A DNA stretch of 57,183 nucleotides from Bacteroidales bacterium (GCA_017645925.1 JAGCNN010000078.1:1-57183); one strand, 5' to 3'; positions 4,501-57,183 are shown, counted from the stretch's first letter. Notes: a model not told the origin generated them from the sequence alone. Translations and numbers: made by a program.

Positions 4501-6186
4501 AACATTCTGAGCAGAAAGGTTTGTCCTGTTAGAACATATCAGGTCGGGAATACTTGCAATTGTTGGAGTTGGTTCAATACAGCAAGTCGGATCGGTAAAG
4601 TCGCGCACCGTTACATACACCGTGGTATCGTAGGTACAACCGAAGTTATCAGTTGCCGAGAACGTGTATGCCACCTGACCTGGAGTTGTTGGATTTGCTA
4701 TATTGTTGGCTGAATTGCCATCAGTCTGCACGGCATCGCCACCCCATTGCATCTCGTCACCGTATGTATTCTGGAACGATATAACGTTTGATGTGTCAGG
4801 AATAAGACCTTCCGCAAAATGAAGCTCTGTTTGAAATACAGTACCATCGTCAGCGCCAAGATAGTCGATGAATATTACGCACCATTCGCCGTTGATTGGA
4901 CATCCGACCAAGTTGCTGAAATTGTCAACTGGCTGATAGTTTCCCGAAGGCAAAGGATTGCTATAGTTTGGACAGTTAGCCGACATCAAACCTCTGTTAT
5001 TGCTCATTGTCCAATAATAGTCGTAACCTACACCAACCCACTGGTCACCATCAAGACATGAGTTTACGCCAACATCATCATAATCGACAGCTTCGCCGAA
5101 ATAACCACCGCCACATGCCTGATGGAACAATGTTACACGATTGCCGTTAGGGCACTGAATCAATATATCCAAGTCACCCATATACGAGTGTTCCATACGC
5201 ATACCGATGGATTCTATTTGGTCTGCCGACTGTATTGTCTGGCCTGGTGCAAACTCACTATAGTAGAAGCAGCTAACCTGTTCTTGATCCTCATGCGCAT
5301 CATCAAAGCAATGCTGCTCATAGTTTACTTCCTGTATAGTCATTTGCCACTCAGGTGGAGGATTCACAACGCCAATCAACTCTACATCTTCGCCCGGACA
5401 AACTTCTGAGGTTATCGTTGTTCCTTCAAAAGTCGGCGGCACTGATATATAAACCGTCACGGTATTCGAAACCACCTGACATCTGTTTATATCTGTTGTT
5501 GTCAAAGTATAGAAATATGCACCCGGAGCAAGCGGTTCCGTCAATTCATTCAGTCCGAGACCTGCAAAAACCTGCGTTCCGTTGCTATTCAGCGCACTCC
5601 ACGAAAAATTTGTATTATCAATTGTCTGCTCGTAGCTTTCATTGTTGTGCAAAAATACAACACTTGCCGATACTAAACCGCCCGAACATCCAAGGAAAGC
5701 ATCTTCAGTCGCATCATACTCTGCATCGGGAGTGATAGTCACTGTATAATCCTGACAAGGGAAACCGCAACGTATGTCAAGTCGAAAACCTGCATATTGT
5801 ACCGAACCATCACTATGCCACTGAATTGTAACACAGTTACTAGTTGTCTCTATTTCATCCGGTGGTAATGAAGAACCGCCCAACGTTGCCAAAAGAGTTC
5901 CACCTGTACCCGAACCGTCATAGATTTTAAGATAGTCGAAACTAACACTTTCGGTTCTGAGTTCCACAACATCAACAACCATATTCGGGACACCGTCACC
6001 TCCACAGAATGTTACGGTATAATTCTCACTGGCAGAATAATTGCCTTCTGGTCCGCCTGAATCATAAAGCGTTGCATTACAAGTGGTTATAGGTGCAGTA
6101 ATCTGGTCTATTGTGTACACCTGCGAATAACCTGCCAAACCTAACAGCAGGAATATTAACGTTATATATATTATCTTGCTATTCAT
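1594..6186 (-). CDS. Large secreted T9SS cargo protein (1530 aa) with type-B (gliding-motility-associated) C-terminal sorting domain
   Basis: Start chosen at the ATG at 6186 (MNSKIIYITLIFLLLGLAGYSQ, signal peptide). There is a CUB-like N-terminal domain (DYLKIYDGSGTGG...WHSDGSVQYAGFRLDI) and a proprotein-convertase P-domain-like segment (HSYMGDLDILIQCPNGNRV...GCPINGEWCVIFIDYLGADDG). SprB-type repeats are present (CYGHCDGRAELAMRGGLPPLQYSW, CHGGNDGEARIFVDGATPPYTYLW), followed by a PKD-like module (WNFGDN...HTYRNPGDFDVTM). The C-terminus reads FTPNGDGLNDCF...IYDRWGESVF. Confidence 0.9.
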   Translation of the reverse strand: MNSKIIYITLIFLLLGLAGYSQVYTIDQITAPITTCNATLYDSGGPEGNYSASENYTVTFCGGDGVPNMVVDVVELRTESVSFDYLKIYDGSGTGGTLLATLGGSSLPPDEIETTSNCVTIQWHSDGSVQYAGFRLDIRCGFPCQDYTVTITPDAEYDATEDAFLGCSGGLVSASVVFLHNNESYEQTIDNTNFSWSALNSNGTQVFAGLGLNELTEPLAPGAYFYTLTTTDINRCQVVSNTVTVYISVPPTFEGTTITSEVCPGEDVELIGVVNPPPEWQMTIQEVNYEQHCFDDAHEDQEQVSCFYYSEFAPGQTIQSADQIESIGMRMEHSYMGDLDILIQCPNGNRVTLFHQACGGGYFGEAVDYDDVGVNSCLDGDQWVGVGYDYYWTMSNNRGLMSANCPNYSNPLPSGNYQPVDNFSNLVGCPINGEWCVIFIDYLGADDGTVFQTELHFAEGLIPDTSNVISFQNTYGDEMQWGGDAVQTDGNSANNIANPTTPGQVAYTFSATDNFGCTYDTTVYVTVRDFTDPTCCIEPTPTIASIPDLICSNRTNLSAQNVPNGNTGEWTVSGYPNGDDVNNSVTFTNPNAPNTQVIVNGWGTYTFRWTEHYIGRDDCNGFAEITTTFRQQPTNSFVYTPIPCFGGECEVTYTGNMDSNADYTWTFGGAFVQGNPNSMGPFILTWQEAGTHGVTLTVDNDGCVTNDTLVSILNPERLVIDSISVVNDPCYHSNGGSAIVTHHGGTMPITYSWAAPGIELLNVGAGSYTLTITDANGCVAQAPFVITEPTEVVVQTIESQNLTCYASHDGSISVYAGGGTGDLHYLWSDVGDGPENRINLSAGEYYLTVSDDNNCGTTAYVALSQPEQLLIQMTTDYAVCEGEPTPVRVNAFGGTSPYHYIWNNGNGEFEAGTEISTLLTETTHYTAYVRDSHGCVSDMQTMTVTVSPQMVIDSIMLRQIKCYGHCDGRAELAMRGGLPPLQYSWPSDTYIYDGICSGAYTVTVADLIGCSVVGSFVITQPDDFVISRSMDSVSCHGGNDGEARIFVDGATPPYTYLWPNGNTTDILTASAGSYIVTVLDSYGCRYTEEFNIPEPTAMMALPMNNVTICNGQSAILTTQVTGGTPYYDYRWSGPDSATYNGIRYEVSPTVTSTYRLTIYDSHGCSIEMSPVTVKLNPDLRIASVVTSYDTICPGDEALIYVEADGGNGGPYTLTLQDGRVVPSPFTVTPDTTTMFYITLTDMCGTPSVTDSIEIFVHSFPDELFTTSNVEGCVPLTVTFSPLNINGTQYLWNFGDNDFSETEIPTHTYRNPGDFDVTMSVWSDFGCKIDKTYADIIHAYPVPKALFDADVQTVSVLSAEVLFNNRSIDANRYFWFFGDQDSSTYESPRHVYPEMGEYEVMLVAQNEHYCTDTTTRTITVYSQFSFYAPTSFTPNGDGLNDCFRICGNGISRNNFLLTIYDRWGESVFTTTDYFPAASCDACSEGAWDGTDMGSKRKGDKVLENGIYYWYCQFEDVYGIQHREQGTINLVR

Positions 6187-6616: not shown

Positions 6617-6724
6617 CTCTTTGAAAATTTTAAATTCAATTGTAAAACGCATAAAATGTCAAACGGTTGCCTCTAAGTGAAAAATTTTTTTTCACAAAAA
6701 CATAATACACTATTTTACAACCTG

Positions 6725-6754
6725 CAAAGATATGAAAAAAGTTTTTGTAACAAA
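6725..6754 (-). promoter_or_regulatory. Candidate Bacteroidota sigma-A promoter for the small-protein / 1530-aa cargo operon
   Basis: On the minus strand, TATCTTTG (6732-6725) fits the -7 consensus TAnnTTTG. TTTG (6754-6751) lies 18 nt upstream as a candidate -33. The start codon at 6616 is about 100 nt downstream. This is pattern match only. Confidence 0.25.
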
Positions 6755-6780
6755 AAAAAAGGGGCTGAAAATTCAGCCCC
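6752..6780 (-). terminator. Intrinsic terminator of the exbB-exbD operon
   Basis: The minus strand reads GGGGCTGA-ATTT-TCAGCCCC followed by a run of nine T. It has a perfect 8-bp stem and lies 24 nt downstream of the exbD stop at 6804. Confidence 0.85.
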
Positions 6781-6803: not shown

Positions 6804-7298
6804 CTAATAACCCATGTCCTGACGAGCAGAATAATTGATTTTCAAGGCACTTGCCTTTCTCAATTCCTGCTTAATGTCGGTGATGATACCCATCTTAGTA
6901 TCCCTATGCACTTTCAGAGAAGTTGTCATAAAAGGAACTTCGGCCTCATCTCTCTCTGCACGTTCTGCAAGAATATATTCGTAAATGTCAGACAATTCGG
7001 CGAACGAGGAGTTCAACTGAATCTTAGGTTCGGTACCGTAGGTCTTCTGGTATTGCTGCAACGGTTTTCCAACATATATGTAGCTTACCAGCGACTTCTT
7101 TTCGAGTTTCTTGATTTCTGTTGCAGTCGGCAGGTCAGAACCCTTGAGTTCAATCAAAAGTTCCACCTCACGCATAGTCGTAGAAACCATGAAGAAGAAA
7201 AGAATCATGAACACGATATCGGGCAAAGATGCTGTTGATATTGCACCGAGGGTTTTCTTTTTCTTTTTTCCCATTACTGCCATACTACTTTCCTCCAT
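6804..7298 (-). CDS. exbD: Biopolymer transport protein ExbD/TolR family
   Basis: The sequence ...GKKKKKTLGAISTASLPDIVFMILFFFMVSTTM has the basic N-terminus plus single TM helix typical of ExbD, followed by a periplasmic domain. A start at 7298 overlaps the upstream stop by 14 nt. The alternative ATG at 7283 would remove the overlap. Confidence 0.8.
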   Translation of the reverse strand: MEESSMAVMGKKKKKTLGAISTASLPDIVFMILFFFMVSTTMREVELLIELKGSDLPTATEIKKLEKKSLVSYIYVGKPLQQYQKTYGTEPKIQLNSSFAELSDIYEYILAERAERDEAEVPFMTTSLKVHRDTKMGIITDIKQELRKASALKINYSARQDMGY

Positions 7299-7869
7299 AA
7301 TTTTTAGGTTCCGCCTCTGAGATTCGCTGAGGATAAATCTTCCTTATGGCTTCCTGCTGTTCATCATTAAGCTCATCGTATGGCTTGTTGAAGTACTTGC
7401 GGGACGCTTCATTTCTTATCTCATTGTAAGCGGCAACCAGTTCGTTCTGCACTTCGATATACCTACCGTAGGTTGTTCCACGGTCGTTCTTCAACGAAAT
7501 GATACCCTTGGATGTCTTGACTGGAGTCTTTATTCCGTCAACTACAATTTCCTCCATTTCAGGAAGAGTTGGGTCGTCTGCCCTATCGCAGTTGATGAAC
7601 TTCTTTGCATCTTCACGCAACTTGTCCAAGTCCATCCATTTATTGTTTACAGATATATTACCCCTTGAATTTACAAGTACAAGGTAGATATTGCGCTTGT
7701 TGACCTCTACATCGGTCTTCTGATCCTTATTCTCCGGAATTGGAGGCAACTGGCGCTGGATACCTGTATCGACATCCATGGTCGTTGTAACAAGGAAGAA
7801 TATGAGGAGCAGGAAAGCAATATCCGCCATAGAACTTGCGTTAATTTCCGGGGTTGCTCTTTTTGCCAT
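7285..7869 (-). CDS. exbD: Biopolymer transport protein ExbD/TolR family (second copy)
   Basis: MAKRATPEINASSMADIAFLLLIFFLVTTTMD shows the ExbD signature N-terminus and TM helix. The gene lies in an exbB-linked operon. Confidence 0.85.
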   Translation of the reverse strand: MAKRATPEINASSMADIAFLLLIFFLVTTTMDVDTGIQRQLPPIPENKDQKTDVEVNKRNIYLVLVNSRGNISVNNKWMDLDKLREDAKKFINCDRADDPTLPEMEEIVVDGIKTPVKTSKGIISLKNDRGTTYGRYIEVQNELVAAYNEIRNEASRKYFNKPYDELNDEQQEAIRKIYPQRISEAEPKNYGGK

Positions 7870-7895
7870 AATATTAACCTTTTAAAAATTAACAA

Positions 7896-8420
7896 TTATT
7901 TCCATAATCTGGAGATTGCTCCATAAACAAGTGCCAAAATAGCTGCTGCACCAGCGATGTAGGTCATCCACAAGCCAGCTTCAGCCAACTTGATGTCGCT
8001 GTAGGCTTCACCCGGTGTATAACCAGCCTTCTGAATACCAATAGTATGAGGTGCAATACCATCAGCCAATGCCCATGCAACTACAACAACCACAACAATG
8101 GCAACGATTGCTATAGCCGGCTTTATCAATGTCTTAGGTGAAGCAAAACCATCAACGATAACACCGCCAATCTCAAAGATTACAAACATTGCAGCACACA
8201 ATAATGCCAATATTTCGCAGGCGTACATTATAAAGCCGCCCCAATTGGATGCCGCAGCGTCAACACCTGCAATCTTGTCGGCACCGGTTGCTCCGTCAAG
8301 AGCATCCATAGCAGCCTGCATTTCAGGTGCTTCGCTAGGCATTAAGAAGAACAGCACTGATATAAGGGCTGCCGCTCCCAATATAACCCAACCTAATATT
8401 TTAATTACTTTCTCTAACAT
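7896..8420 (-). CDS. Hypothetical integral membrane protein (174 aa, about 4 TM helices) inside the exbB-exbD operon
   Basis: The ORF is uninterrupted and has four hydrophobic stretches (for example ILGWVILGAAALISVLFFL and AIAIVAIVVVVVVAWALA). It is tightly packed between exbB and exbD. I recognise no motif. Confidence 0.6.
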   Translation of the reverse strand: MLEKVIKILGWVILGAAALISVLFFLMPSEAPEMQAAMDALDGATGADKIAGVDAAASNWGGFIMYACEILALLCAAMFVIFEIGGVIVDGFASPKTLIKPAIAIVAIVVVVVVAWALADGIAPHTIGIQKAGYTPGEAYSDIKLAEAGLWMTYIAGAAAILALVYGAISRLWK

Positions 8421-50383: not shown

Positions 50384-51400
50384 TCATTTGTCCGACTGAA
50401 GATATTCTCCAACCGACCATGCCGCTGCTCTTGCATCGTTTATTACATCATTTATAGTCATAGGACGTTTGCACGAACCTGCAACAAACAAACCCTTTTC
50501 AGAGGTTTCGTTGTCGCAAAGATGCGGAGTTGCAGTCTTTACATAGCCATATTCACCATCAATTCCACATTTCTTGCCAAGGTCACGTGTACCGCACGAA
50601 GCCTCCATACCAACCATAAGCACTAGCAGGTCGGCAGTCATCTTCATCGGAACGCCAAGCAAAGTATCTTCGGCCTTTATCTGAATCTTGCGGTCGAAAG
50701 TCGATGATGCCTCCGAAATTCTTCCTCGCACATAGCGGATGTCGTACTTTTCCTGCGATTCGCGGTAAAGTTCCTCGAAATGCTGTCCCCACATGCGCAA
50801 ATCCATATAGAAAATGTAGATTTCGGCTTCGGGAAGTATCTTCCGCACTTCAATAGCCTGCTTTACAGCCGTTACACAGCATACCTTGGAGCAATAGCGG
50901 TTGCCAGACTTTTCATCTCGTGAACCAACGCACTGCAGGAAAACAACGCGCTTTGGCGATTCGTTTATGGAGTTTACAATCTGGTTGTACTTTATCATCC
51001 TTTCCATATCAATGGAAGTAACAACGCCCTTGTATATGCCGTAGCCAAGTTCTTCCTTGCGCGTAGCGTCAAAGGTTTGATAACCAGTAGTAACAAGCAC
51101 TGCATCAACAAAATAGTTCTTTCCCGACTTGTCTACAATTTTCCATTCAGAATCGTTACGCACAATGTCAACGACCTCGGTGTTGAGCATCAACTTGATA
51201 TTTTCGTTAATCAGCTTTGAATTAAGGCTATCGGCGATTTCCGATGCACTTGAAAAATCGGGGAAAAGATAAGCCTTGTCAAGTATGTTGGATAGAGCCG
51301 TCGCCGACTTTTCAAAAAGCAACACTTCGTTTTCCCTTGCTAGGATTGATGCACTTTCGATACCTGCGGGACCTGCTCCTATAACTGCAATCTTTCTCAT
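50384..51400 (-). CDS. Short HdrA-like FAD/[4Fe-4S] oxidoreductase (338 aa)
   Basis: The N-terminal dinucleotide fold is KIAVIGAGPAGIESA. The HdrA-type cysteine cluster is CVGSRDEKSGNRYCSKVCC. The ferredoxin and MvhD-like domains of full-length HdrA are absent. Confidence 0.75.
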   Translation of the reverse strand: MRKIAVIGAGPAGIESASILARENEVLLFEKSATALSNILDKAYLFPDFSSASEIADSLNSKLINENIKLMLNTEVVDIVRNDSEWKIVDKSGKNYFVDAVLVTTGYQTFDATRKEELGYGIYKGVVTSIDMERMIKYNQIVNSINESPKRVVFLQCVGSRDEKSGNRYCSKVCCVTAVKQAIEVRKILPEAEIYIFYMDLRMWGQHFEELYRESQEKYDIRYVRGRISEASSTFDRKIQIKAEDTLLGVPMKMTADLLVLMVGMEASCGTRDLGKKCGIDGEYGYVKTATPHLCDNETSEKGLFVAGSCKRPMTINDVINDARAAAWSVGEYLQSDK

Positions 51401-51415
51401 ATCTAATGTTTTATA

Positions 51416-52483
51416 TTAAACTTTTAAATTCATTGGTTTTTCGGGAGATGGAAGGATTTCTCCATTTGCACCGCGATATTTTTCATTTGGCTTGTACGGA
51501 ATTCCAATCTTGTCAAGCAGATTTTCCACCTGAACCTGATGCAACTGCATTCCGAGTTTCCACGGGTCGTAGCCAAGCAACATTCCAGCCATTTCCTCGT
51601 AAGTGAGAACCGGAATACCATAGCCGTCCTTGTCATAGGTCTTGTTTTCCATCTCGGCGATGGTGTACTGCCATTTGTCCATGAACATCGAACATCCGGG
51701 GCAATTCGTTACAATAAAATCAGGCTCGAACGGCTCCATCGACTCAAATTTCTTCTTGGTGTTTGCTACCGAATAGCCACGGTTTTCCTGCAACAAATAA
51801 TGGCGGAAACCGAATCCGCAGCAATGACGGCGTTCGGGATAATCGACCACTTCCCCGCCCCACGCTTCAATCATACCGGCGAGAACATACGGGAATTCTG
51901 CCTTACCGATACCCTTTTCGGGAAAAATCTTGGCATAATGACAGCCTATATGCTCCACAACGCGCAAAGGCTTGCCTGTGAAACGGTTCACAAGCTGGTA
52001 TTTCATCTTTTCCTTCAGCTCGAAGCGGTATTTATAAATAATATCCGATGGGTGGACAAGGTTTTTGGGCACATCAAACTCGCGTCCAGTAGCTTCCTTC
52101 AAGTACTTGCGTGTCTTTTCGAGCATTTCGGGATGTTCCTTCCACATTTCCACCATTTCGGTAAAAATGCCGAACGAAGTCACGCACGAAGGCACATAGT
52201 TCTCGTAACCTGCTTCGGTCATCAGCGAGAACAGACGGGCAACAACCGTCATTGTCGTTTCGAGCGGAACAATGTCGGAATGATAGCCTATGCCAGTGCA
52301 AGTGTGCTGGTTGGCCTCATCGCGGATATCCTTGCCAAGTTCCTCGCGGAGAATTTTCAGAAAAGCCGTTTCCGAACCAGGGAAAAACGTCTGTCTGATG
52401 CAACTGCGCTCGTAGAAGAACTTGTCATCGGCAATTTCCTTCTGGTATTCGTTCCAATATCTTCTATTTTTTGATTCGTCCAT
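51416..52483 (-). CDS. HdrB-like CCG-domain protein (355 aa), first CCG domain degenerate
   Basis: The C-terminal half has HIGCHYAK...RHCCGFGFRH...VTNCPGCSMF (CCG domain). The N-terminal half has only remnants (HTCTGIGYH, PSCVTSFG). The gene ends 15 nt before the hdrA-like start. Confidence 0.7.
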   Translation of the reverse strand: MDESKNRRYWNEYQKEIADDKFFYERSCIRQTFFPGSETAFLKILREELGKDIRDEANQHTCTGIGYHSDIVPLETTMTVVARLFSLMTEAGYENYVPSCVTSFGIFTEMVEMWKEHPEMLEKTRKYLKEATGREFDVPKNLVHPSDIIYKYRFELKEKMKYQLVNRFTGKPLRVVEHIGCHYAKIFPEKGIGKAEFPYVLAGMIEAWGGEVVDYPERRHCCGFGFRHYLLQENRGYSVANTKKKFESMEPFEPDFIVTNCPGCSMFMDKWQYTIAEMENKTYDKDGYGIPVLTYEEMAGMLLGYDPWKLGMQLHQVQVENLLDKIGIPYKPNEKYRGANGEILPSPEKPMNLKV

Positions 52484-52504
52484 ATAACTATTCTTTCATC
52501 ATTT

Positions 52505-52565
52505 TATTTCAATCATTCTTTTTCAATCATTTTTTTAAGATGTTTGTTTTAGGATGATGGGATTT
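52505..52565. repeat. Left copy of a ~61-nt direct repeat (partner at 56219-56279)
   Basis: The left copy TATTTCAATCATTCTTTTTCAATCATTTTTTTAAGATGTTTGTTTTAGGATGATGGGATT aligns with the right copy TATTTCAATCATTCTATTTCAATCATTTCTTTAGGATGATTGTTTTGCAATGATTGAAATT. By hand alignment they are about 84 percent identical overall, and 42 of the first 46 nt match. Confidence 0.8.
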
Positions 52566-52571
52566 TGTTTT

Positions 52572-55247
52572 TTATTCCTTAACAACCTTTCGCTGTTCCA
52601 AAATAGAACCCGCATCTGTTCCGAAAATTCTCACGACATAAACACCTGCCGTCAATCCTTCAACATCGCAAACCGCATTCTCTCCGTTTATCTCCTTGCG
52701 GTAAACAACCTGTCCCATCACATTTACAATCTCAATTTCGGAAATTGTTTCCGTGGATGTTATGTTGAGAATGTCGCTGGTTGGGTTAGGGAAAATGGTA
52801 ATTGCGGAATTGTCGGTGTCGGAAATGCCAGACAGAATGTTCAGGTGAAGTGTAACGATTGAATCACAACCGTTTTCTGCCGTGAAATTCTGTACATAGT
52901 CGCCTGTTTCGGTGTACTCGGTGCCATTCCAAATGTATGGACTAGTTGCCGATTCAGTGAAACTATAATGCACGGAATTGTTTATTGTCAAATGCAGGGT
53001 AACAACAGAATCGCAACCGTTTGAAGCGGTGAAAGTCTTGTCGTATGTACCGCTTTCGGTATAGGTTTCGCCATTCCATTCGTATGAATCGCAAGCGGTG
53101 ACCTCTACAAATCCAGTCTGCGGATGGTTGATAGTCAGATGCAGGGTAACAACTGAATCACAACCATTAGAAGCGGTGAAAGTCTTGTCGTATGTACCAC
53201 TTTCGGTATAGGTTTCGCCATTCCATTCGTAGGAATCGCAAGCAGTGACCTCTACAAGTCCAGTCTGCGGATGGTTGATAGTCAGATGCAAAGTAACAAC
53301 CGAGTCACAACCGTTTGAAGCGGTGAAAGTCTTGTCGTATGTGCCGCTTTCGGTGTATGTTTCGCCATTCCACTCGTAGGAATCGCAAGCAGATGCTTCA
53401 ACACTTTCTGTCTGCGGATGATTTATTGTGAGATGCAGAGTAACAATCGAATCGCAACCGCTGTCGGATGAAATCGTTTGCTCATAATTTCCAGATTCGG
53501 TATATGTTTGATTGTTCCACAAATAACTGCCACAAGCAACTGCGGTAAAATCGCGTGTTGGCGATTCGTTTATTGTCAAATGCAAAGTGACAACTGAATC
53601 ACAACCATTTGATGCAGTGAAAGTCTTGTCGTATGTACCGCTTTCGGTATAGGTTTCGCCATTCCATTCGTATGAATCGCAAGCGGTGACCTCTACAAGT
53701 CCTGTCTGCGGATGGTTGATAGTCAAATGCAAAGTAACAACCGAGTCGCAACCATTAGAAGCGGTGAAAGTCTTGTCGTAAGTGCCGCTTTCGGTATAAG
53801 TTTGCCCGTCCCACTCGTAGGAACTGCAAGCAGTGACTTCGATATTTTCTGCCTGCGGATGGTTGATTGTTAAATGCAAGGTCAACACAGAATCGCAACC
53901 GTTGGACTGGGGAACAGTTATAGTATAATTGCCCGATTCGGTGTAGGTTGTGCCGTGCCACAGGTACGAACCGCAAGCCGTAGCCGATGTTTCGCCAGTA
54001 GGTTGCTGGCAATCCTGAGTGCTGAAATTCCACACTGCCGACCAAACCGAGTTTCCGCTTGCATTGTAGCCCTGAACGCGCCAGTAGTAGGTTGTTCCAT
54101 ACATAAGGTTGCAGGTTGCATTGGTGCCTGCTGTTGTTCCGTTGCGGACTATTGAAGCAAAATCATTGTCGGTAGCCACCTGATAGCGGTAGCCGGTAAC
54201 ATTGTCCAGTTCGTCCCATAACAGTTCCACTCCCGATGGTGCAATTTCGGTGCTGCCGTTTGCAGGACTAACAAGCGTTGGCGCAGTGGTCAATTGATAT
54301 GCTGTTGTGAAACGCCATACATTTGACCATCCAGAAGTATCTTCTGCATTAACAGCGCAAACTCGCCAGAAATATGTTGTACCAGAAAGCAAAGTGGATA
54401 TAGTAGAACTTATGTAGGTCGTGTAATTAGTTAGTGAAGATGATACATTCGAATTTTGCAATATTTCTGAATCAAAATTTGCAGTAGTGTCAACTTGAAG
54501 AATATATGACGAAGACCCCTCATTATTTGTCCATTGTAGAGTACAATATGCATTGGATTGTCCTATACTATTGTTTTGTGGAGAATAAAGTAAAACATTA
54601 CTGGCAGTTGAAAATCTTCTTACCGCCGAATAGTTAGATGTATCACTATCATCTCTGTTTGTAGCCCTCACGCGCCAATAATAAGTAGTGCCGTAATTTA
54701 AATTGTACAAATATTTCTCGTATGATGTTGTTGCAAATGTTCGATATAACGGGGAAGAAAATGTTGTAGTTGTATCCAAGTCAAATATATAATGTGCAGC
54801 ATAATTTATTTGTGAGCAAACGAGTTTAGTCCAAACAGCAGAACCATAATTTATTCCGTTTATAGGCGATTCTAAGTCCGGACAGCAAGTTATTGTAAAA
54901 TATCTCGTTACAGAATACATAGAAGTATCGGATGTATTAGTATTTATTGCTTTTGCACGCCAATAATATGTAGTTCCATAACACAGTTCATTAAAAGAAA
55001 TCACCCGATAATCCCTGTCTCGCTCTCCACTTTGAAAACAAGGAGAATTAAATGATTCCGTTGTGTCTATTTCTATTAAAAATCTATTTGCATCAGATTG
55101 ATAGTACCATTCTAATGATGGTAGTATTGTGTTTGAAATATATGCTCCATTTGCAGGTGATGACAATGTTGGAGGATTAACAGCAAATGAATTACTGACA
55201 ATCAATATCGTTATAAATAAAACAGCAAAGAATCTTTTCATAATCAC
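52572..55247 (-). CDS. Secreted T9SS cargo protein (891 aa), type-A C-terminal sorting domain, FN3-like repeats plus eight Cys-containing 49-aa repeats
   Basis: There is a signal peptide (MIMKRFFAVLFITILIVSNSFA). Four ~95-aa modules end in GTTYYWRV.A.N....S.WS....F.T. Eight repeats of the form C.SY.W.G.TYTESG.Y......NGCDS.VTLHLTIN follow. The C-terminus reads IFPNPTSDILNI...GVYVVRIFG. Confidence 0.9.
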   Translation of the reverse strand: MIMKRFFAVLFITILIVSNSFAVNPPTLSSPANGAYISNTILPSLEWYYQSDANRFLIEIDTTESFNSPCFQSGERDRDYRVISFNELCYGTTYYWRAKAINTNTSDTSMYSVTRYFTITCCPDLESPINGINYGSAVWTKLVCSQINYAAHYIFDLDTTTTFSSPLYRTFATTSYEKYLYNLNYGTTYYWRVRATNRDDSDTSNYSAVRRFSTASNVLLYSPQNNSIGQSNAYCTLQWTNNEGSSSYILQVDTTANFDSEILQNSNVSSSLTNYTTYISSTISTLLSGTTYFWRVCAVNAEDTSGWSNVWRFTTAYQLTTAPTLVSPANGSTEIAPSGVELLWDELDNVTGYRYQVATDNDFASIVRNGTTAGTNATCNLMYGTTYYWRVQGYNASGNSVWSAVWNFSTQDCQQPTGETSATACGSYLWHGTTYTESGNYTITVPQSNGCDSVLTLHLTINHPQAENIEVTACSSYEWDGQTYTESGTYDKTFTASNGCDSVVTLHLTINHPQTGLVEVTACDSYEWNGETYTESGTYDKTFTASNGCDSVVTLHLTINESPTRDFTAVACGSYLWNNQTYTESGNYEQTISSDSGCDSIVTLHLTINHPQTESVEASACDSYEWNGETYTESGTYDKTFTASNGCDSVVTLHLTINHPQTGLVEVTACDSYEWNGETYTESGTYDKTFTASNGCDSVVTLHLTINHPQTGFVEVTACDSYEWNGETYTESGTYDKTFTASNGCDSVVTLHLTINNSVHYSFTESATSPYIWNGTEYTETGDYVQNFTAENGCDSIVTLHLNILSGISDTDNSAITIFPNPTSDILNITSTETISEIEIVNVMGQVVYRKEINGENAVCDVEGLTAGVYVVRIFGTDAGSILEQRKVVKE
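52835..53985 (-). repeat. Eight tandem 147-nt coding repeats, several nearly identical at nucleotide level
   Basis: Compare 52990-53136, 53137-53283, 53284-53430 and 53578-53724. These differ at only a handful of positions. The protein unit ACDSYEWNGETYTESGTYDKTFTASNGCDSVVTLHLTINHPQTGLVEVT is exactly repeated. Confidence 0.9.
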
Positions 55248-55397
55248 AAAGTTAATGGCATTTATAATTTATATTTCTACCGCAAAAATACATTTTTTTT
55301 TCGATACTACAATGCTACGGAACATTTTAGGATGAAAAATGCATACAAATCCACAACCTATGTAGGGTGATTTGGGTTGGTTCAAGGGGTTCGGATG

Positions 55398-55417
55398 AGA
55401 CGCAACATTTTGCGTCT
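55398..55417. promoter_or_regulatory. Perfect palindrome AGACGCAA-CATT-TTGCGTCT upstream of hicB (candidate operator)
   Basis: The palindrome has 8-bp perfect arms. It lies 40 nt upstream of a TACATTTG -7-like box (55458-55465) and 69 nt upstream of the hicB ATG. No T-tract follows on either strand, so it is not a convincing terminator. Confidence 0.3.
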
Positions 55418-55485
55418 GTACAATTATTTTTCTTATTGTCGGTAAAGAAAAACGCATTACATTTGCGATAAATTCAATTGAAGTT

Positions 55486-55869
55486 ATGAATAACAGCAAA
55501 AACAAGGTTACGATTGCGGCAAAGTCAAATGTAGGAAACACCGAGTACCGTTTCAACATCGACTTCTATGTGTTCCAGTACGATGGCGAATATGTGGCTT
55601 ATTGTCCGTCGCTCGACATTACCGAAACCGGCGAAACTTACAGCCAATGTATATGCAGTTTCTATGAGAAATTCCAGATATATGCCGAATGGTGCATTGA
55701 GCACGGTACGCTCCTTGACGACCTGCGGAATCACGGATGGAAAATCCTCAAGACAGAATTAAGGCCTCCGTCATACAAAACGCAGATGGGCAAAGCGGAA
55801 ATGAAAAGACTGTTCGACAGCAATGTGAACTTCGAACGCATTGTTTCTCCAATGAGAGTTGCGCTGTGA
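55486..55869 (+). CDS. hicB: HicB-like antitoxin (127 aa)
   Basis: YRFNIDFYVFQYDGEYVAYCPSLDITETGETYSQCICSFYEKFQIY matches the HicB/UPF0150 N-terminal fold signature (..Y.A.CPELD....G.T.EEA...). I cannot recognise the C-terminal DNA-binding part. The gene is paired with hicA. Confidence 0.6.
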   Translation: MNNSKNKVTIAAKSNVGNTEYRFNIDFYVFQYDGEYVAYCPSLDITETGETYSQCICSFYEKFQIYAEWCIEHGTLLDDLRNHGWKILKTELRPPSYKTQMGKAEMKRLFDSNVNFERIVSPMRVAL

Positions 55870-56099
55870 AAAAGTTGTCGAACATATCGTTAAGGGAACT
55901 TAGACTAGTATTGACACAGTTGGGGCTGTCGAAGGAACGCACAAAGGGCGGACACGAAATCTGGTCGAAAGAAGGGCTTTGCAGACCTGTAACATTCCAG
56001 ACACACAAAGACCCCGTTCCCGAACTGGTGATAAAGAACATAATCCGCGATGTGAATATTACTCGCGACCAATTCCTCGAAATACTGGAAGAGATATAG
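55866..56099 (+). CDS. hicA: HicA-like mRNA interferase toxin (77 aa, GTG start)
   Basis: The GTG at 55866 overlaps the hicB stop (GTGA, 4-nt overlap). SLRELRLVLTQLGLSKERTKGGHEIWSKEGLCRPVTFQTHKDPVPELVIKNIIRDVNITRDQF fits the HicA pattern (L..L...G....R..GSH.......G....V..H.........++.I+...G+....F). Confidence 0.65.
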   Translation: MKKLSNISLRELRLVLTQLGLSKERTKGGHEIWSKEGLCRPVTFQTHKDPVPELVIKNIIRDVNITRDQFLEILEEI

Positions 56100-56218
56100 G
56101 AGTGGATATGCCTACGGCGTTTGAATGGCTACGCCGTTTCTCGCGTAGCGACTACCATGAGGTTTTAATGACTACGCGGTTTCTGGGGTTATGTGGGCAA
56201 CCTAAATTCACTTGCCTA

Positions 56219-56279
56219 TATTTCAATCATTCTATTTCAATCATTTCTTTAGGATGATTGTTTTGCAATGATTGAAATT
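56219..56279. repeat. Right copy of the ~61-nt direct repeat, with internal symmetry (2 x TTTCAATCAT then 2 x ATGATTG)
   Basis: See the partner at 52505-52565. In this copy TTTCAATCATT (56221-56231) is the exact reverse complement of AATGATTGAAA (56267-56277). A second inner pair is CAATCAT / ATGATTG. Confidence 0.8.
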
Positions 56280-56380
56280 GTCAATTATTCATTACATACA
56301 TTACAGTTCCAGATTAGCTTCGCTGAGCTGAAGGTACTGAAACAAGTTCAGAATGACACCGTGGGTGTATTGTCCATTGT

Positions 56381-57183
56381 TCATTGTCCATTATCAATTA
56401 TGTTTTCTGCTACAATCTCTGCAACATCCTTTACCTGCAATGTAGTAGCATGATTAAACGCCTTCTTGCACATAGGGCAGGCTGTTGCAATGAGGTCAGG
56501 ATTCTTATCCATAAGACTTTCCACTGCAGCATCGCGAACCTTGGTCTGCTGTTCCATAGTAAGCACTGTGCTTCCAAGATTGAAACCGCAACAGAGGCTC
56601 TTTTCCTTTTCGTCCTTTGCCTTCACCAGATTCGAAACCGACTTCAGAACCTCGCGCGGTTCATCGTAGATTCCGCATCCACGACCAAGTTCACACGGGT
56701 CGTGATACACAACCTTAAGGTCGTCCTTGCGCAACTTCAGTCGTCCCGACTTTATCAGACCAGCAATGTATTCTGTATGGTGCATAACCTTGATAGGCAG
56801 GTTGTATTCCTTGGTAAACGACTGATAGCAAATCGGGCATGAAGTCACAAGCAACTTTGCCTTCGACTTTATAATCATGCTCTGGTTCTTCAATCGCAAG
56901 TCCTTGGCCTGCTTCAAGAAACCCTGCTGCAACAGCGGACGGCCACAGCAGATGGTCCTGTTCTTGTCCATATACCAGTAGTTCTGGTCAACAGCCTCGA
57001 AAATCTTTATCATCGACTCGGTAATACCGGGTGTCAAGTGCGACATACATCCGCCAAAATACAGCACACGACCTACCGAGTTGAATGCCTGAATATTATC
57101 AGCATAGCTATAGTTTCCCGACGCATCAAGAGCGCTTTCCTTTGTTCGCACCTGACGGCGGATTGTCATAAGGTCGAGCCCTA
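56381..57183 (-). CDS. CCG-domain (Fe-S)-binding oxidoreductase, HdrD/GlpC/LutA-like, possibly 5'-truncated by the window edge
   Basis: There are two CCG domains: LYFGGCM...CCGRPLLQQGF...VTSCPICYQSF and YHDPCELGRGCG...CCGFNLGS...ATACPMCKKAF. The frame stays open upstream of the ATG at 57169 to the window end, so the true start is unresolved. Confidence 0.75.
   Translation of the reverse strand, partial: GLDLMTIRRQVRTKESALDASGNYSYADNIQAFNSVGRVLYFGGCMSHLTPGITESMIKIFEAVDQNYWYMDKNRTICCGRPLLQQGFLKQAKDLRLKNQSMIIKSKAKLLVTSCPICYQSFTKEYNLPIKVMHHTEYIAGLIKSGRLKLRKDDLKVVYHDPCELGRGCGIYDEPREVLKSVSNLVKAKDEKEKSLCCGFNLGSTVLTMEQQTKVRDAAVESLMDKNPDLIATACPMCKKAFNHATTLQVKDVAEIVAENIIDNGQ

Follow-up and report, generated by a model that had tools for sequence, protein, structure and literature searches.

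Within the window, the 57,183-nt stretch of DNA from a rumen Bacteroidales bacterium analysed here, a 3,653-nt accessory block (positions 52566-56218) probably represents a true insertion that interrupted an ancestral Hdr-like operon and belongs to the type known as 'insertion with long target duplication'. The ancestral operon is likely to have contained, in this order, an hdrC-like gene, a ferredoxin gene and an hdrD-like CCG gene, followed by an hdrB-like and an hdrA-like gene, with the block entering between the CCG gene and the hdrB-like gene. An insertion into an ancestral redox operon had been proposed in the original prediction, and this view is supported by empty sites in relatives and by the locus specificity of the flanking repeat.

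The block is bracketed by two copies of a 61-nt element in the same orientation, copy A at 52505-52565 and copy B at 56219-56279 (both minus strand). They are 84% identical over 61 nt and match at 42 of the first 46 nt (91.3%), in agreement with the values first reported. Copy A ends 21 nt before the hdrB-like ATG (52483), and copy B is 101 nt apart from the stop codon of the CCG gene (56381-56383). About 60 of these 101 nt are accounted for by REPc (56300-56362), a palindrome lying in this interval, outside the main insertion. REPc is a separate REP-like insertion that has an identical 48-nt copy on contig C67 of the same genome and is lacking in G011, a genome of another species. The element corresponds to the intercistronic leader of about 85 nt between the CCG gene and hdrB, an A/T-rich nested palindrome with four half-sites (ATCATT and AATGATT) whose last hairpin arm adjoins the hdrB start codon. 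The whole hairpin is duplicated. Copy B retains the intact nested hairpin, with an outer stem of 12 bp and an inner stem of 7 bp (RNA fold of -17.5 kcal/mol, z -2.56), whereas copy A is degenerate and has lost it (-7.4 kcal/mol, z -0.43). The last leader unit, AAATGATGAAAGAATAGTTAT (52484-52504, minus strand), is not duplicated; it abuts the hdrB ATG and corresponds in alignment to the final AATGATT unit of the leaders at empty sites, and the variant found here is confined to filled alleles.

Four close relatives carry an empty site (G051/L043, G008/L046, G024/L047 and the metagenome contig L189), in which a single copy of the element lies between the CCG gene and hdrB and the two genes follow each other within 75-125 nt. 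Both 61-nt copies of the filled locus align with this single leader. On a broader scale, 52 of 80 Bacteroidales loci have the CCG gene immediately upstream of a same-strand hdrB, the median gap being 38 nt. The element itself is bound to the locus. A BLAST search of the whole 3.09-Mb genome with copy B returned copy A (E 1.7e-12) and nothing else notable, so that the genome holds two copies, both at the hdr locus. Eight of the 39 genus genomes contain the element, always at the hdr locus or in one derived block, and across 185,579 species genomes its 20-nt core is genus-restricted, apart from 11 single matches in unrelated taxa. The original prediction had allowed that relatives might offer no empty site or that the element might be a common dispersed repeat; neither is the case. 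All genomes compared, including that of the studied locus (G000), are MAGs.

The insert combines a T9SS cargo gene, a divergently oriented hicB-hicA module and a hairpin-rich spacer, the content initially described for it, with the spacer measuring 119 nt. The T9SS cargo gene (52572-55241, minus strand) encodes 889-891 aa and contains seven 147-nt tandem repeats (52828-54009). Its product carries a T9SS sorting domain according to Por_Secre_tail PF18962 (47.6 bits, cut-off 27) and also matches TIGR04183 (41.2 bits, cut-off 23), and an 83%-identical paralogue is present within the same genome. The adjoining divergent promoter region (55242-55485) harbours the REP-like palindrome REPb (55385-55430), of which the genome has 43 copies. 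Motif scans place two Bacteroidetes-type -7 boxes there, TATTTTTG on the minus strand (first base 55290) for the T9SS gene and TACATTTG on the plus strand (starting at 55458) for hicBA.

The hicB-like antitoxin gene (55486-55869, plus strand) encodes a 127-aa protein that has no Pfam or NCBIfam match. A homologue at 48% identity carries the NCBI name HicB, and the top four PDB matches of the AF2 model (pLDDT 84) are HicB antitoxins, with probabilities of 0.97-0.99 and E-values of only 0.03-0.08. The protein is thus predicted from its model to adopt the HicB antitoxin fold, and its gene adjoins hicA, the hicB stop and the hicA start overlapping in GTGA. The hicA-like toxin gene (55866-56099, plus strand, GTG start) encodes 77 aa including a GGH motif, as read from the sequence. 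Its product scores 25.5 bits against PF07927, slightly below the gathering score of 27 (E 1.5e-5), and matches PHROG 353 'toxin' with an E-value of 2.6e-7. The hairpin spacer (56100-56218) folds with -32 to -35 kcal/mol and includes REPa (56105-56146), a dispersed palindrome with 22 genome copies. No integrase or transposase Pfam domain was found in any ORF of the segment, as had been noted at the outset, and a search for terminal inverted repeats gave a best end-to-end inverted match scoring 15, compared with a shuffle mean of 15.9. The suggested comparison of GC and k-mer composition was uninformative, with a GC content of 0.420 in the insert and 0.425 in the genome and a close T9SS paralogue elsewhere in that genome.

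The upstream half of the split operon ends with the HdrD/TfrB-like CCG gene, whose 3' part lies in the window (56381-57183, minus strand). The complete protein has 593 aa and two CCG domains; the full gene is visible on L155, where it is preceded by two HdrC-like ferredoxin genes. The downstream half comprises the HdrB-like gene (51416-52483, minus strand; 355 aa, one CCG domain, PF02754) and the HdrA-like flavoprotein gene (50384-51400, minus strand; 338 aa, Pyr_redox_2), which keeps its synteny with hdrB in almost all of the 80 loci. Matches to the NCBIfam models HdrB (149 bits, cut-off 450), HdrC (104 bits, cut-off 350) and HdrA2 (222 bits, cut-off 1100) fall below the equivalog cut-offs, those to HdrA and HdrA2 both far below, and the proteins are therefore 'Hdr-like' only and not heterodisulfide reductase proper. 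Both hdrB and hdrA are still intact and under purifying selection, and hdrB shows 45 synonymous differences and 1 non-synonymous difference to its G051 counterpart. Between the T9SS stop and hdrB, neither a terminator-like site nor a TAnnTTTG box was found. Paralogous T9SS genes in G011 are followed by terminators of their own and resemble the T9SS gene of the insert only as far as the stop codon. The genes hdrB and hdrA are probably now transcribed via read-through from the T9SS gene promoter.

The filled structure was assembled on 13 independent contigs and is thus no assembly artefact. G011 carries the same insertion with identical junctions. Nucleotide identity between G000 and G011 reaches 99.2% for hicB, 99.6% for hicA and 100% for the hairpin spacer, which has 145 extra nt in G011, compared with 84% for the CCG gene and 86.5% for hdrB in the flanks. 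The T9SS parts are 93-95% identical, as against 99-100% for hicBA, and the tract of high identity stops just beyond both repeats. The difference between hicBA at 99% and flanks at 84-87% argues for horizontal spread of the filled allele. In a tree of hdrB and hdrA, which as a locus tree may itself be affected by recombination, G011 lies inside a 100/100 clade that leaves out G000 and the empty-site genome G051. In G003, G050, L192 and L197, an unrelated ATPase_2 gene borders the same leader, which is not duplicated there; the site is therefore a hotspot and not the scene of a single accident. A further genome, G010, contains a relocated derivative of the block with an Abi_2 gene inserted in the T9SS/hicB divergent promoter region. 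Its leader copies are identical over 54 nt beside T9SS ends that are only 85% identical, an observation that counts against break capture and would fit recombination at the leader. The position of the leader behind two different T9SS genes in G010 would also fit recombination at the leader itself.

As the proposed explanation, the intercistronic leader of about 85 nt between the CCG gene and hdrB would have been the target. The 3,653-nt block would have entered between the leader hairpin and the last leader unit, leaving the first 58-61 nt of the leader on both of its sides and bringing along hicB-hicA with its own promoter, the divergent T9SS gene with its own promoter and the REP-like palindromes. 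The most likely route would be an illegitimate, break-repair-type capture at the hairpin, possibly aided by a GAATAA microhomology at the T9SS end. Once established, the insert would be stabilised by its toxin-antitoxin pair, and the direct repeats may have allowed unequal crossing-over or loop-out, from which a T9SS-leader-hicA junction such as that of G010 would be expected. The higher identity of the insert relative to its flanks indicates that the filled allele passed horizontally between species.

It is possible, if on the whole doubtful, that the leader hairpin acts instead as an att-like site at which a circle composed of hicBA, the T9SS gene and one leader integrated into the resident leader. 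Similarly doubtful is the route this would entail, in which a recombinase acting in trans or a Campbell-type homologous crossover produces the flanking leaders and repeated integration gives rise to tandem arrays. The duplication of the entire hairpin, a nested palindrome with four half-sites, agrees with such a site, as do the identical G010 leaders next to 85%-identical flanks, the drop in identity between G000 and G011 just at the outer edge of copy B, and the second cargo gene, ATPase_2, at the same leader. The ATPase_2 insertion, however, left the leader unduplicated. The G010 block includes a junction of the end of T9SS#2, leader and hicA, as a circle or tandem array would yield, but this junction is equally explained by unequal crossing-over between copies, and the block terminates inside hdrB and inside a T9SS gene, not at leaders. 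Moreover, the non-duplicated 3' leader unit moves with the insert in G000 and G011, which is not predicted by a crossover inside the leader. The block and its surroundings lack a recombinase, and the 75%-complete genome yields one tyrosine-recombinase (Phage_integrase-family) match, located on another contig (C7).

It also seems improbable that the block was built in two steps, hicBA alone entering with the long duplication and the T9SS gene (and Abi_2 in G010) being added later between hicB and copy A. The toxin-antitoxin pair would then, with the same low probability, be the sole self-inserting unit. Homology of hicBA across contexts is restricted to 55425-56099, covering the promoter, hicB and hicA, and at another locus of the same genus (L205) hicBA is found alone between direct repeats of 58-84 nt that are 91% identical. 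For L205, however, no clean empty site was found, and its repeat holds a locally repeated hairpin. The extra Abi_2 gene of the G010 block and the lower identity of the T9SS parts relative to hicBA between G000 and G011 would fit stepwise growth, but gene conversion with paralogues could account for the latter, and every hdr-locus allele found to carry hicBA also had the T9SS gene.

We regard it as highly improbable that the filled arrangement is ancestral and that relatives lost the block through recombination between the repeats. Direct repeats permit such deletions, and several branches of the locus tree include leader-type spacers; yet the CCG gene and hdrB are neighbours in many genera of the order, genomes with 84-87% identity in the flanks share 99% in hicBA, and the filled genomes do not form a monophyletic group in that tree. 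The leaders of empty sites also lack the 3' unit of the filled allele, and the difference between this unit and that of the empty allele in G051 indicates that the empty state of the relatives is not the result of excision. That the bracketing is coincidental, through a commonly dispersed 61-nt element or a misassembled contig, can practically be dismissed: other parts of the insert are indeed dispersed palindromes (REPa with 22 and REPb with 43 copies), but its own genome holds just two copies of the leader, which proved locus-specific across 39 genus and 185,579 species genomes, and independent assemblies, on 13 contigs and in G011, show the same structure.

Insertion with long target duplication, our preferred reading, was described for restriction-modification genes (Nobusato, Uchiyama, Ohashi, Kobayashi, Gene 2000, 259:99; Furuta, Abe, Kobayashi, NAR 2010, PMC2853133). 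It is defined by an insert of <20 kb that is absent from a flank-aligned relative, repeats of >30 bp that both match one copy at the empty site, no mobility gene in the insert or beside it and a repeat that is not multicopy, and the flanking repeats allow amplification (PMC2853133). Here, the insert of 3,653 nt is absent from G051, G008, G024 and L189, the 61-nt copies both align to the single leader of the empty site, no integrase or transposase domain is present, and the repeat has two copies only. The cargo consists of hicBA and a T9SS gene and not of restriction-modification genes, so membership covers the insertion pattern and not the original cargo class. As in the restriction-modification cases, the insert occupies an intergenic or gene-end position and its repeats are unique in the genome; unlike in those cases, an intercistronic hairpin within an operon served as the target and the copies have diverged to 84%. 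The published hypothesis places double-strand breaks by restriction enzymes behind such insertions (PMC2853133). Here, in contrast, the cargo includes no restriction nuclease that could cause such breaks. HicA belongs to an RNase family, and the restriction rationale therefore does not transfer.

Comparable arrangements are known from other bacteria. In Microcystis aeruginosa PCC 7806, a type II toxin-antitoxin pair lies between same-orientation repeats with inverted repeats and just after a chromosomal gene, as here (Klemencic et al. 2021, PMC7935541). The passages of that report on the pair describe repeats of 152 bp that are identical and mention no empty site, compared with 61 nt, empty sites and an extra gene in our case. 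In Haemophilus influenzae, intergenic dyad hairpins at the hif/haf pilus and hicAB loci likewise border an inserted surface-structure cluster next to hicAB and are thought to promote locus movement without a dedicated recombinase (summarised in PMC4144887); the name hicAB goes back to 'hif contiguous' (PMC8610362). As described there, the Haemophilus dyads are dispersed in the genome, whereas the present leader is unique to one locus (PMC4144887).

Integron cassettes share with this locus a folded nested-stem site (attC) after the cargo and typical toxin-antitoxin cargo, and the cargo-site-cargo-site arrangement of G010 resembles an integron array. Here, however, there is no IntI or attI nearby, the genes have their own promoters and lie on both strands, and the leader is homologous to the resident operon leader. 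An integron cassette was rejected, with no RYYYAAC/GTTRRRY cores seen by eye in the leader and no integrase in the window region. CIMEs and integrative islands similarly feature direct repeats around accessory genes and a one-repeat empty site, but at the present locus no integrase occurs in this genome or in any relative, the copies are not identical, and the target is neither a tRNA nor a gene 3' end used by known integrases. Classification as a site-specific integrative element (island, IME or CIME) is therefore doubtful, the insert itself containing no recombinase. Transposons, too, leave target sequence on both sides of the insert; their duplications usually measure 2-15 bp, as opposed to 58-61 nt without a transposase here. 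An IS, transposon or MITE was ruled out given this length and the lack of terminal inverted repeats above shuffle.

The locus of this rumen Bacteroidales bacterium is a well documented case of a known insertion pattern and not a new pattern. Here, the long-target-duplication pattern carries a toxin-antitoxin pair and a T9SS gene instead of restriction-modification genes.

The window spans the entire contig C135 of its metagenome-assembled genome (G000; 3.09 Mb, 75% complete). Read along the minus strand, a CCG-domain gene (56381-57183, 3' end only) is followed by genes for an HdrB-like protein (51416-52483), an HdrA-like protein (50384-51400) and a sigma-54 response regulator. The upstream half is complete on L155, a longer contig with the same allele, where a 593-aa HdrD/TfrB-like CCG protein is encoded together with two HdrC-like ferredoxins. 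Because every Hdr assignment scores far under the NCBIfam cut-offs, we call the operon only 'Hdr-like'. The gap between the CCG gene and hdrB amounts to 3,897 nt (~3.9 kb) in the window. Across 80 Bacteroidales loci that hold an HdrB-like gene, the CCG gene lies directly upstream on the same strand in 52, with a median gap of 38 nt and a maximum of 1,287 nt, and downstream in 8. In loci L035-L041, which come from remoter relatives within the genus and the order (G004, G017, G013, G009, G021, G026), the gene order is hdrB, hdrA, a ~1.3-kb gene and CCG; the CCG gene has therefore switched sides of the hdrB-hdrA pair at least once.

The original prediction placed an insertion in a formerly contiguous operon and called for a search for the empty site in related genomes. 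The interpretation is supported by genomes whose HdrB is 96-100% identical to that of the window. A single leader, the ~85-nt hairpin spacer between the two genes, separates CCG and hdrB in G051 (L043), G008 (L046), G024 (L047) and the metagenome contig L189, and the CCG-hdrB adjacency in the survey agrees with this state. Unrelated short spacers occupy the position in G020, G002, L044, L045 and L049, while the window's insertion recurs with the same junctions in G011, where it is split across contigs C32 and C20. Furthermore, an identical HicB is encoded on 13 independent contigs, and all of these that reach the flanking genes share the window's context. Together with the site states in relatives, these contigs establish that the structure is real, that an empty state exists and that the operon was once contiguous. 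Between the window and G051, hdrB shows 45 synonymous codon differences and a single non-synonymous one, and the gene remains under strong purifying selection.

Two leader copies flank the insertion in the same orientation, copy A at 52505-52565 and copy B at 56219-56279. Over 61 nt they share 84% identity, with 42 of the first 46 positions matching, which confirms the direct repeats noted around the T9SS gene and hicBA. When all copies are aligned, the duplicated stretch opens at the first ATCATT arm and closes at ...GAATGATTGAAATA (some 58-61 nt), and the last leader unit stays single beside the hdrB ATG. On the hicA side the insert opens with TAGGCAAGTG...; its other end lies 6 nt past the T9SS stop codon. 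The alignment also reveals a GAATAA microhomology between the T9SS stop region and the sequence just ahead of the leader. That the bracketing reflects a dispersed repeat, which the prediction had named as a refuting outcome, can be rejected: copy B finds only copy A in its own genome (E 1.7e-12), the leader occurs in 8 of 39 genus genomes, always at the hdr locus or within the relocated block of G010 described below, and its 20-nt core matches, among 185,579 species genomes, six genomes, all of this genus, plus 11 single sites in unrelated taxa, about what we roughly estimate chance to yield for an A/T-rich 20-mer. Judged by this distribution, the repeat is to be read as a duplicated target, not a dispersed element.

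Intergenic spacers of this genus open, straight after the stop codon, with A/T-rich tandem 'words' of ~7 nt (TGGACAA/TGAACAA, GTTAAGA/GTTAATA, AAGTTGA), as in the window (56363-56400), in L048 (~7928-8000), in L045 (~7893-8000) and in G000 contig C296 (3030-3230), and the words are wholly different between genomes despite flanking proteins that are >95% identical. Since the last residues and the stop codon of the CCG protein sit within such words, its C-terminus is variable (ENII* versus ENIIDNGQ...).

Between the leader copies, the insert comprises the T9SS cargo gene, in which a 147-nt repeat occurs seven times, then a divergent intergenic region, hicB (55486-55869), hicA (55866-56099), whose GTG start overlaps the hicB stop, and a 119-nt hairpin spacer that runs to copy B. 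HicA scores 25.5 bits in Pfam against a cut-off of 27 and also matches a PHROG toxin family. The family search gave no match for HicB; the first structural matches of its AF2 model (pLDDT 84) are HicB antitoxins, and a 48%-identical homologue bears the HicB name at NCBI. A check for foreign composition is uninformative because the insert's GC content (0.420) is close to that of the genome (0.425). The T9SS gene has an 83%-identical paralogue within G000. Its length differs between alleles (891, 889, 850 and 712 aa) along with the number of 147-nt repeats, as seen in the window (52828-54009), in L158/L203 and in L139 (2151-4703). Between G000 and G011 these repeats show mosaic identity of 78-100% per 60 nt, a pattern that suggests gene conversion among repeats or paralogues.

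The insert also holds dispersed REP-like palindromes of two families, REPb (55385-55430; 43 genome copies) and REPa (56105-56146; 22 copies), and a third family, REPc (56300-56362; ~6 copies), is present outside it, beyond copy B. On contig C40 of G000 (4668-4965), 22 nt of REPc recur ~100 nt away from a Y1_Tnp (IS200/RAYT-like) match, which suggests a REP/RAYT system, and in contig C101 of G008 (6632-6766) REPa units are arrayed in tandem every 34 nt.

A search for a donor locus with both hicBA and this T9SS gene found none; HicB homologues are few (6 proteins). More distant hicBA homologues (L205, L207-L209) have the hicBA module alone in common with the window's context. In L205, another locus of the same genus, an 86%-identical hicBA lies between direct repeats (1734-1817 and 2668-2751) of 58-84 nt that are 91% identical and contain a hairpin; a search of 301 genomes from the order gave no empty site for it.

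The filled allele seems to have spread between lineages. Comparing G000 with G011, nucleotide identity is 99.2% for hicB, 99.6% for hicA, 100% for the hairpin spacer, 93-95% for the T9SS gene and 93% for the repeat copies, versus 84% for the flanking CCG gene and 86.5% for hdrB; in 60-nt bins it falls just beyond both repeats. In the hdrB+hdrA tree, which represents a single locus and is to be read within that limit, G011 belongs to a 100/100 clade without G000 and the empty-site genome G051. Taken with the identity contrast between insert and flanks, the tree favours horizontal transfer over shared descent for the filled allele.

A relocated derivative is found in G010, a 100% complete genome without the hdr operon. 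Another of its loci, for which G000 contig C296 shows the empty state, holds a 6.7-kb block. The block comprises, in order, a sorting-domain fragment of a second T9SS gene (T9SS#2), a leader copy, hicA and hicB, Abi_2, the first T9SS gene (T9SS#1), another leader copy, ATPase_2 and the first 37 nt of hdrB. G010 has neither an hdrB nor an hdrA gene, yet these 37 nt (L139 883-925) are fused behind ATPase_2, a relic showing that an hdr locus was the source from which the block was copied, by illegitimate recombination. Its internal T9SS-leader-hicA junction is the kind that a tandem duplication or a circle would create. The hicA of this block (L139 6408-6610) is broken by a ~195-nt insert that we consider MITE-like because its ends are 16-nt inverted repeats (GGTGGGTTCTATAAAT / ATTTATAGAATCCACC) and TTAAG is duplicated.

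These features fit a known kind of event, insertion with long target duplication, which Nobusato et al. 2000 were the first to report (PMC2853133). Such inserts are shorter than 20 kb and lack mobility genes; their flanking repeats are direct, longer than 30 bp, unique in the genome and align with one copy at the empty site, and they permit amplification (PMC2853133), with which the G010 junction is consistent. The window's insertion agrees with this description in every structural respect. It differs in cargo, a toxin-antitoxin pair and a T9SS gene, whereas the published cargo consists of restriction-modification genes (PMC2853133). Related precedents are a ParDE-like pair in Microcystis that lies between 152-bp direct repeats containing inverted repeats (PMC7935541) and dyad sequences in Haemophilus thought to mobilise pilus loci beside hicAB (PMC4144887, PMC8610362). 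The kind of insertion is thus already known.

The main live alternative, which we regard as unlikely, is that the leader hairpin acts as an att-like site. No fewer than two unrelated cargos, hicBA with the T9SS gene and ATPase_2, have entered at the leader, which also lies downstream of two different T9SS genes in G010 and keeps an identical sequence where adjoining sequences diverge. As anticipated, no integrase or transposase domain was detected in any ORF of the insert, nor did terminal inverted repeats exceed shuffled controls; G000 yields one tyrosine-recombinase and two Y1 transposase matches, none of them on the window contig. A metagenome scan for other cargo types at the leader gave empty and ATPase_2 alleles only. 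ATPase_2 (PF01637, 375 aa, with its own TAnnTTTG box) occupies the exact position between the final leader unit and the ATG of hdrB in L050 (~6847-8000; G003), L152 (G050), L197 (5920-7044) and L192, where the leader is not duplicated, and likewise downstream of a leader in the G010 block. Still more doubtful is the specific version that the nested A/T-rich hairpin is an active site of cassette exchange, either without a recombinase gene or with one in trans. Were this true and general, toxin-antitoxin modules inserted with long target duplication would move by a hairpin-targeted mechanism independent of restriction enzymes.

The folds of empty-site leaders are clearly more stable than those of shuffles (z -3.3 and -3.6), and the 3' arm of these leaders adjoins the hdrB AUG. 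Copy B keeps a nested hairpin (12 + 7 bp, -17.5 kcal/mol, z -2.56), and copy A has lost it (z -0.43). Neither leader nor hairpins matched an Rfam family at E <= 1. We take the leader to be a putative RNA hairpin between the cistrons, one that may affect hdrB translation or mRNA stability. The -7 promoter motif of Bacteroidetes is TAnnTTTG, and it was used in place of a sigma-70-type scan, which returned weak matches only. Such boxes lie ahead of hicB and of the T9SS gene, and none was found in copy A or copy B; reading the leader by eye gave no GG-N10-GC pattern of a sigma-54 promoter. No terminator-like site occurs from the T9SS stop to hdrB. The paralogous T9SS genes of G011 have their own terminators and, past the stop codon, nothing in common with the window's gene. 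Since the leaders lack a -7 box and no terminator follows the T9SS stop, hdrB and hdrA would probably be transcribed by read-through from the T9SS promoter.

The locus is thus a well-resolved example of a pattern already known, and its effect on operon expression may be testable. The case covers several genomes, with the site filled, empty or taken by another gene, and with a derivative that has moved elsewhere; it illustrates how accessory DNA without a recombinase enters a conserved operon at its middle, persists there and spreads from it. Insertion with long target duplication, described for restriction-modification genes, is thereby extended to HicBA and a passenger surface-protein gene, a cargo that weakens the case for DNA breaks by restriction enzymes as a requirement. 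The case also predicts a rewiring of expression that places hdrB and hdrA behind a secreted-protein promoter, and it advises caution in annotating rumen Bacteroidales, in which an intact Hdr-like operon may look split.
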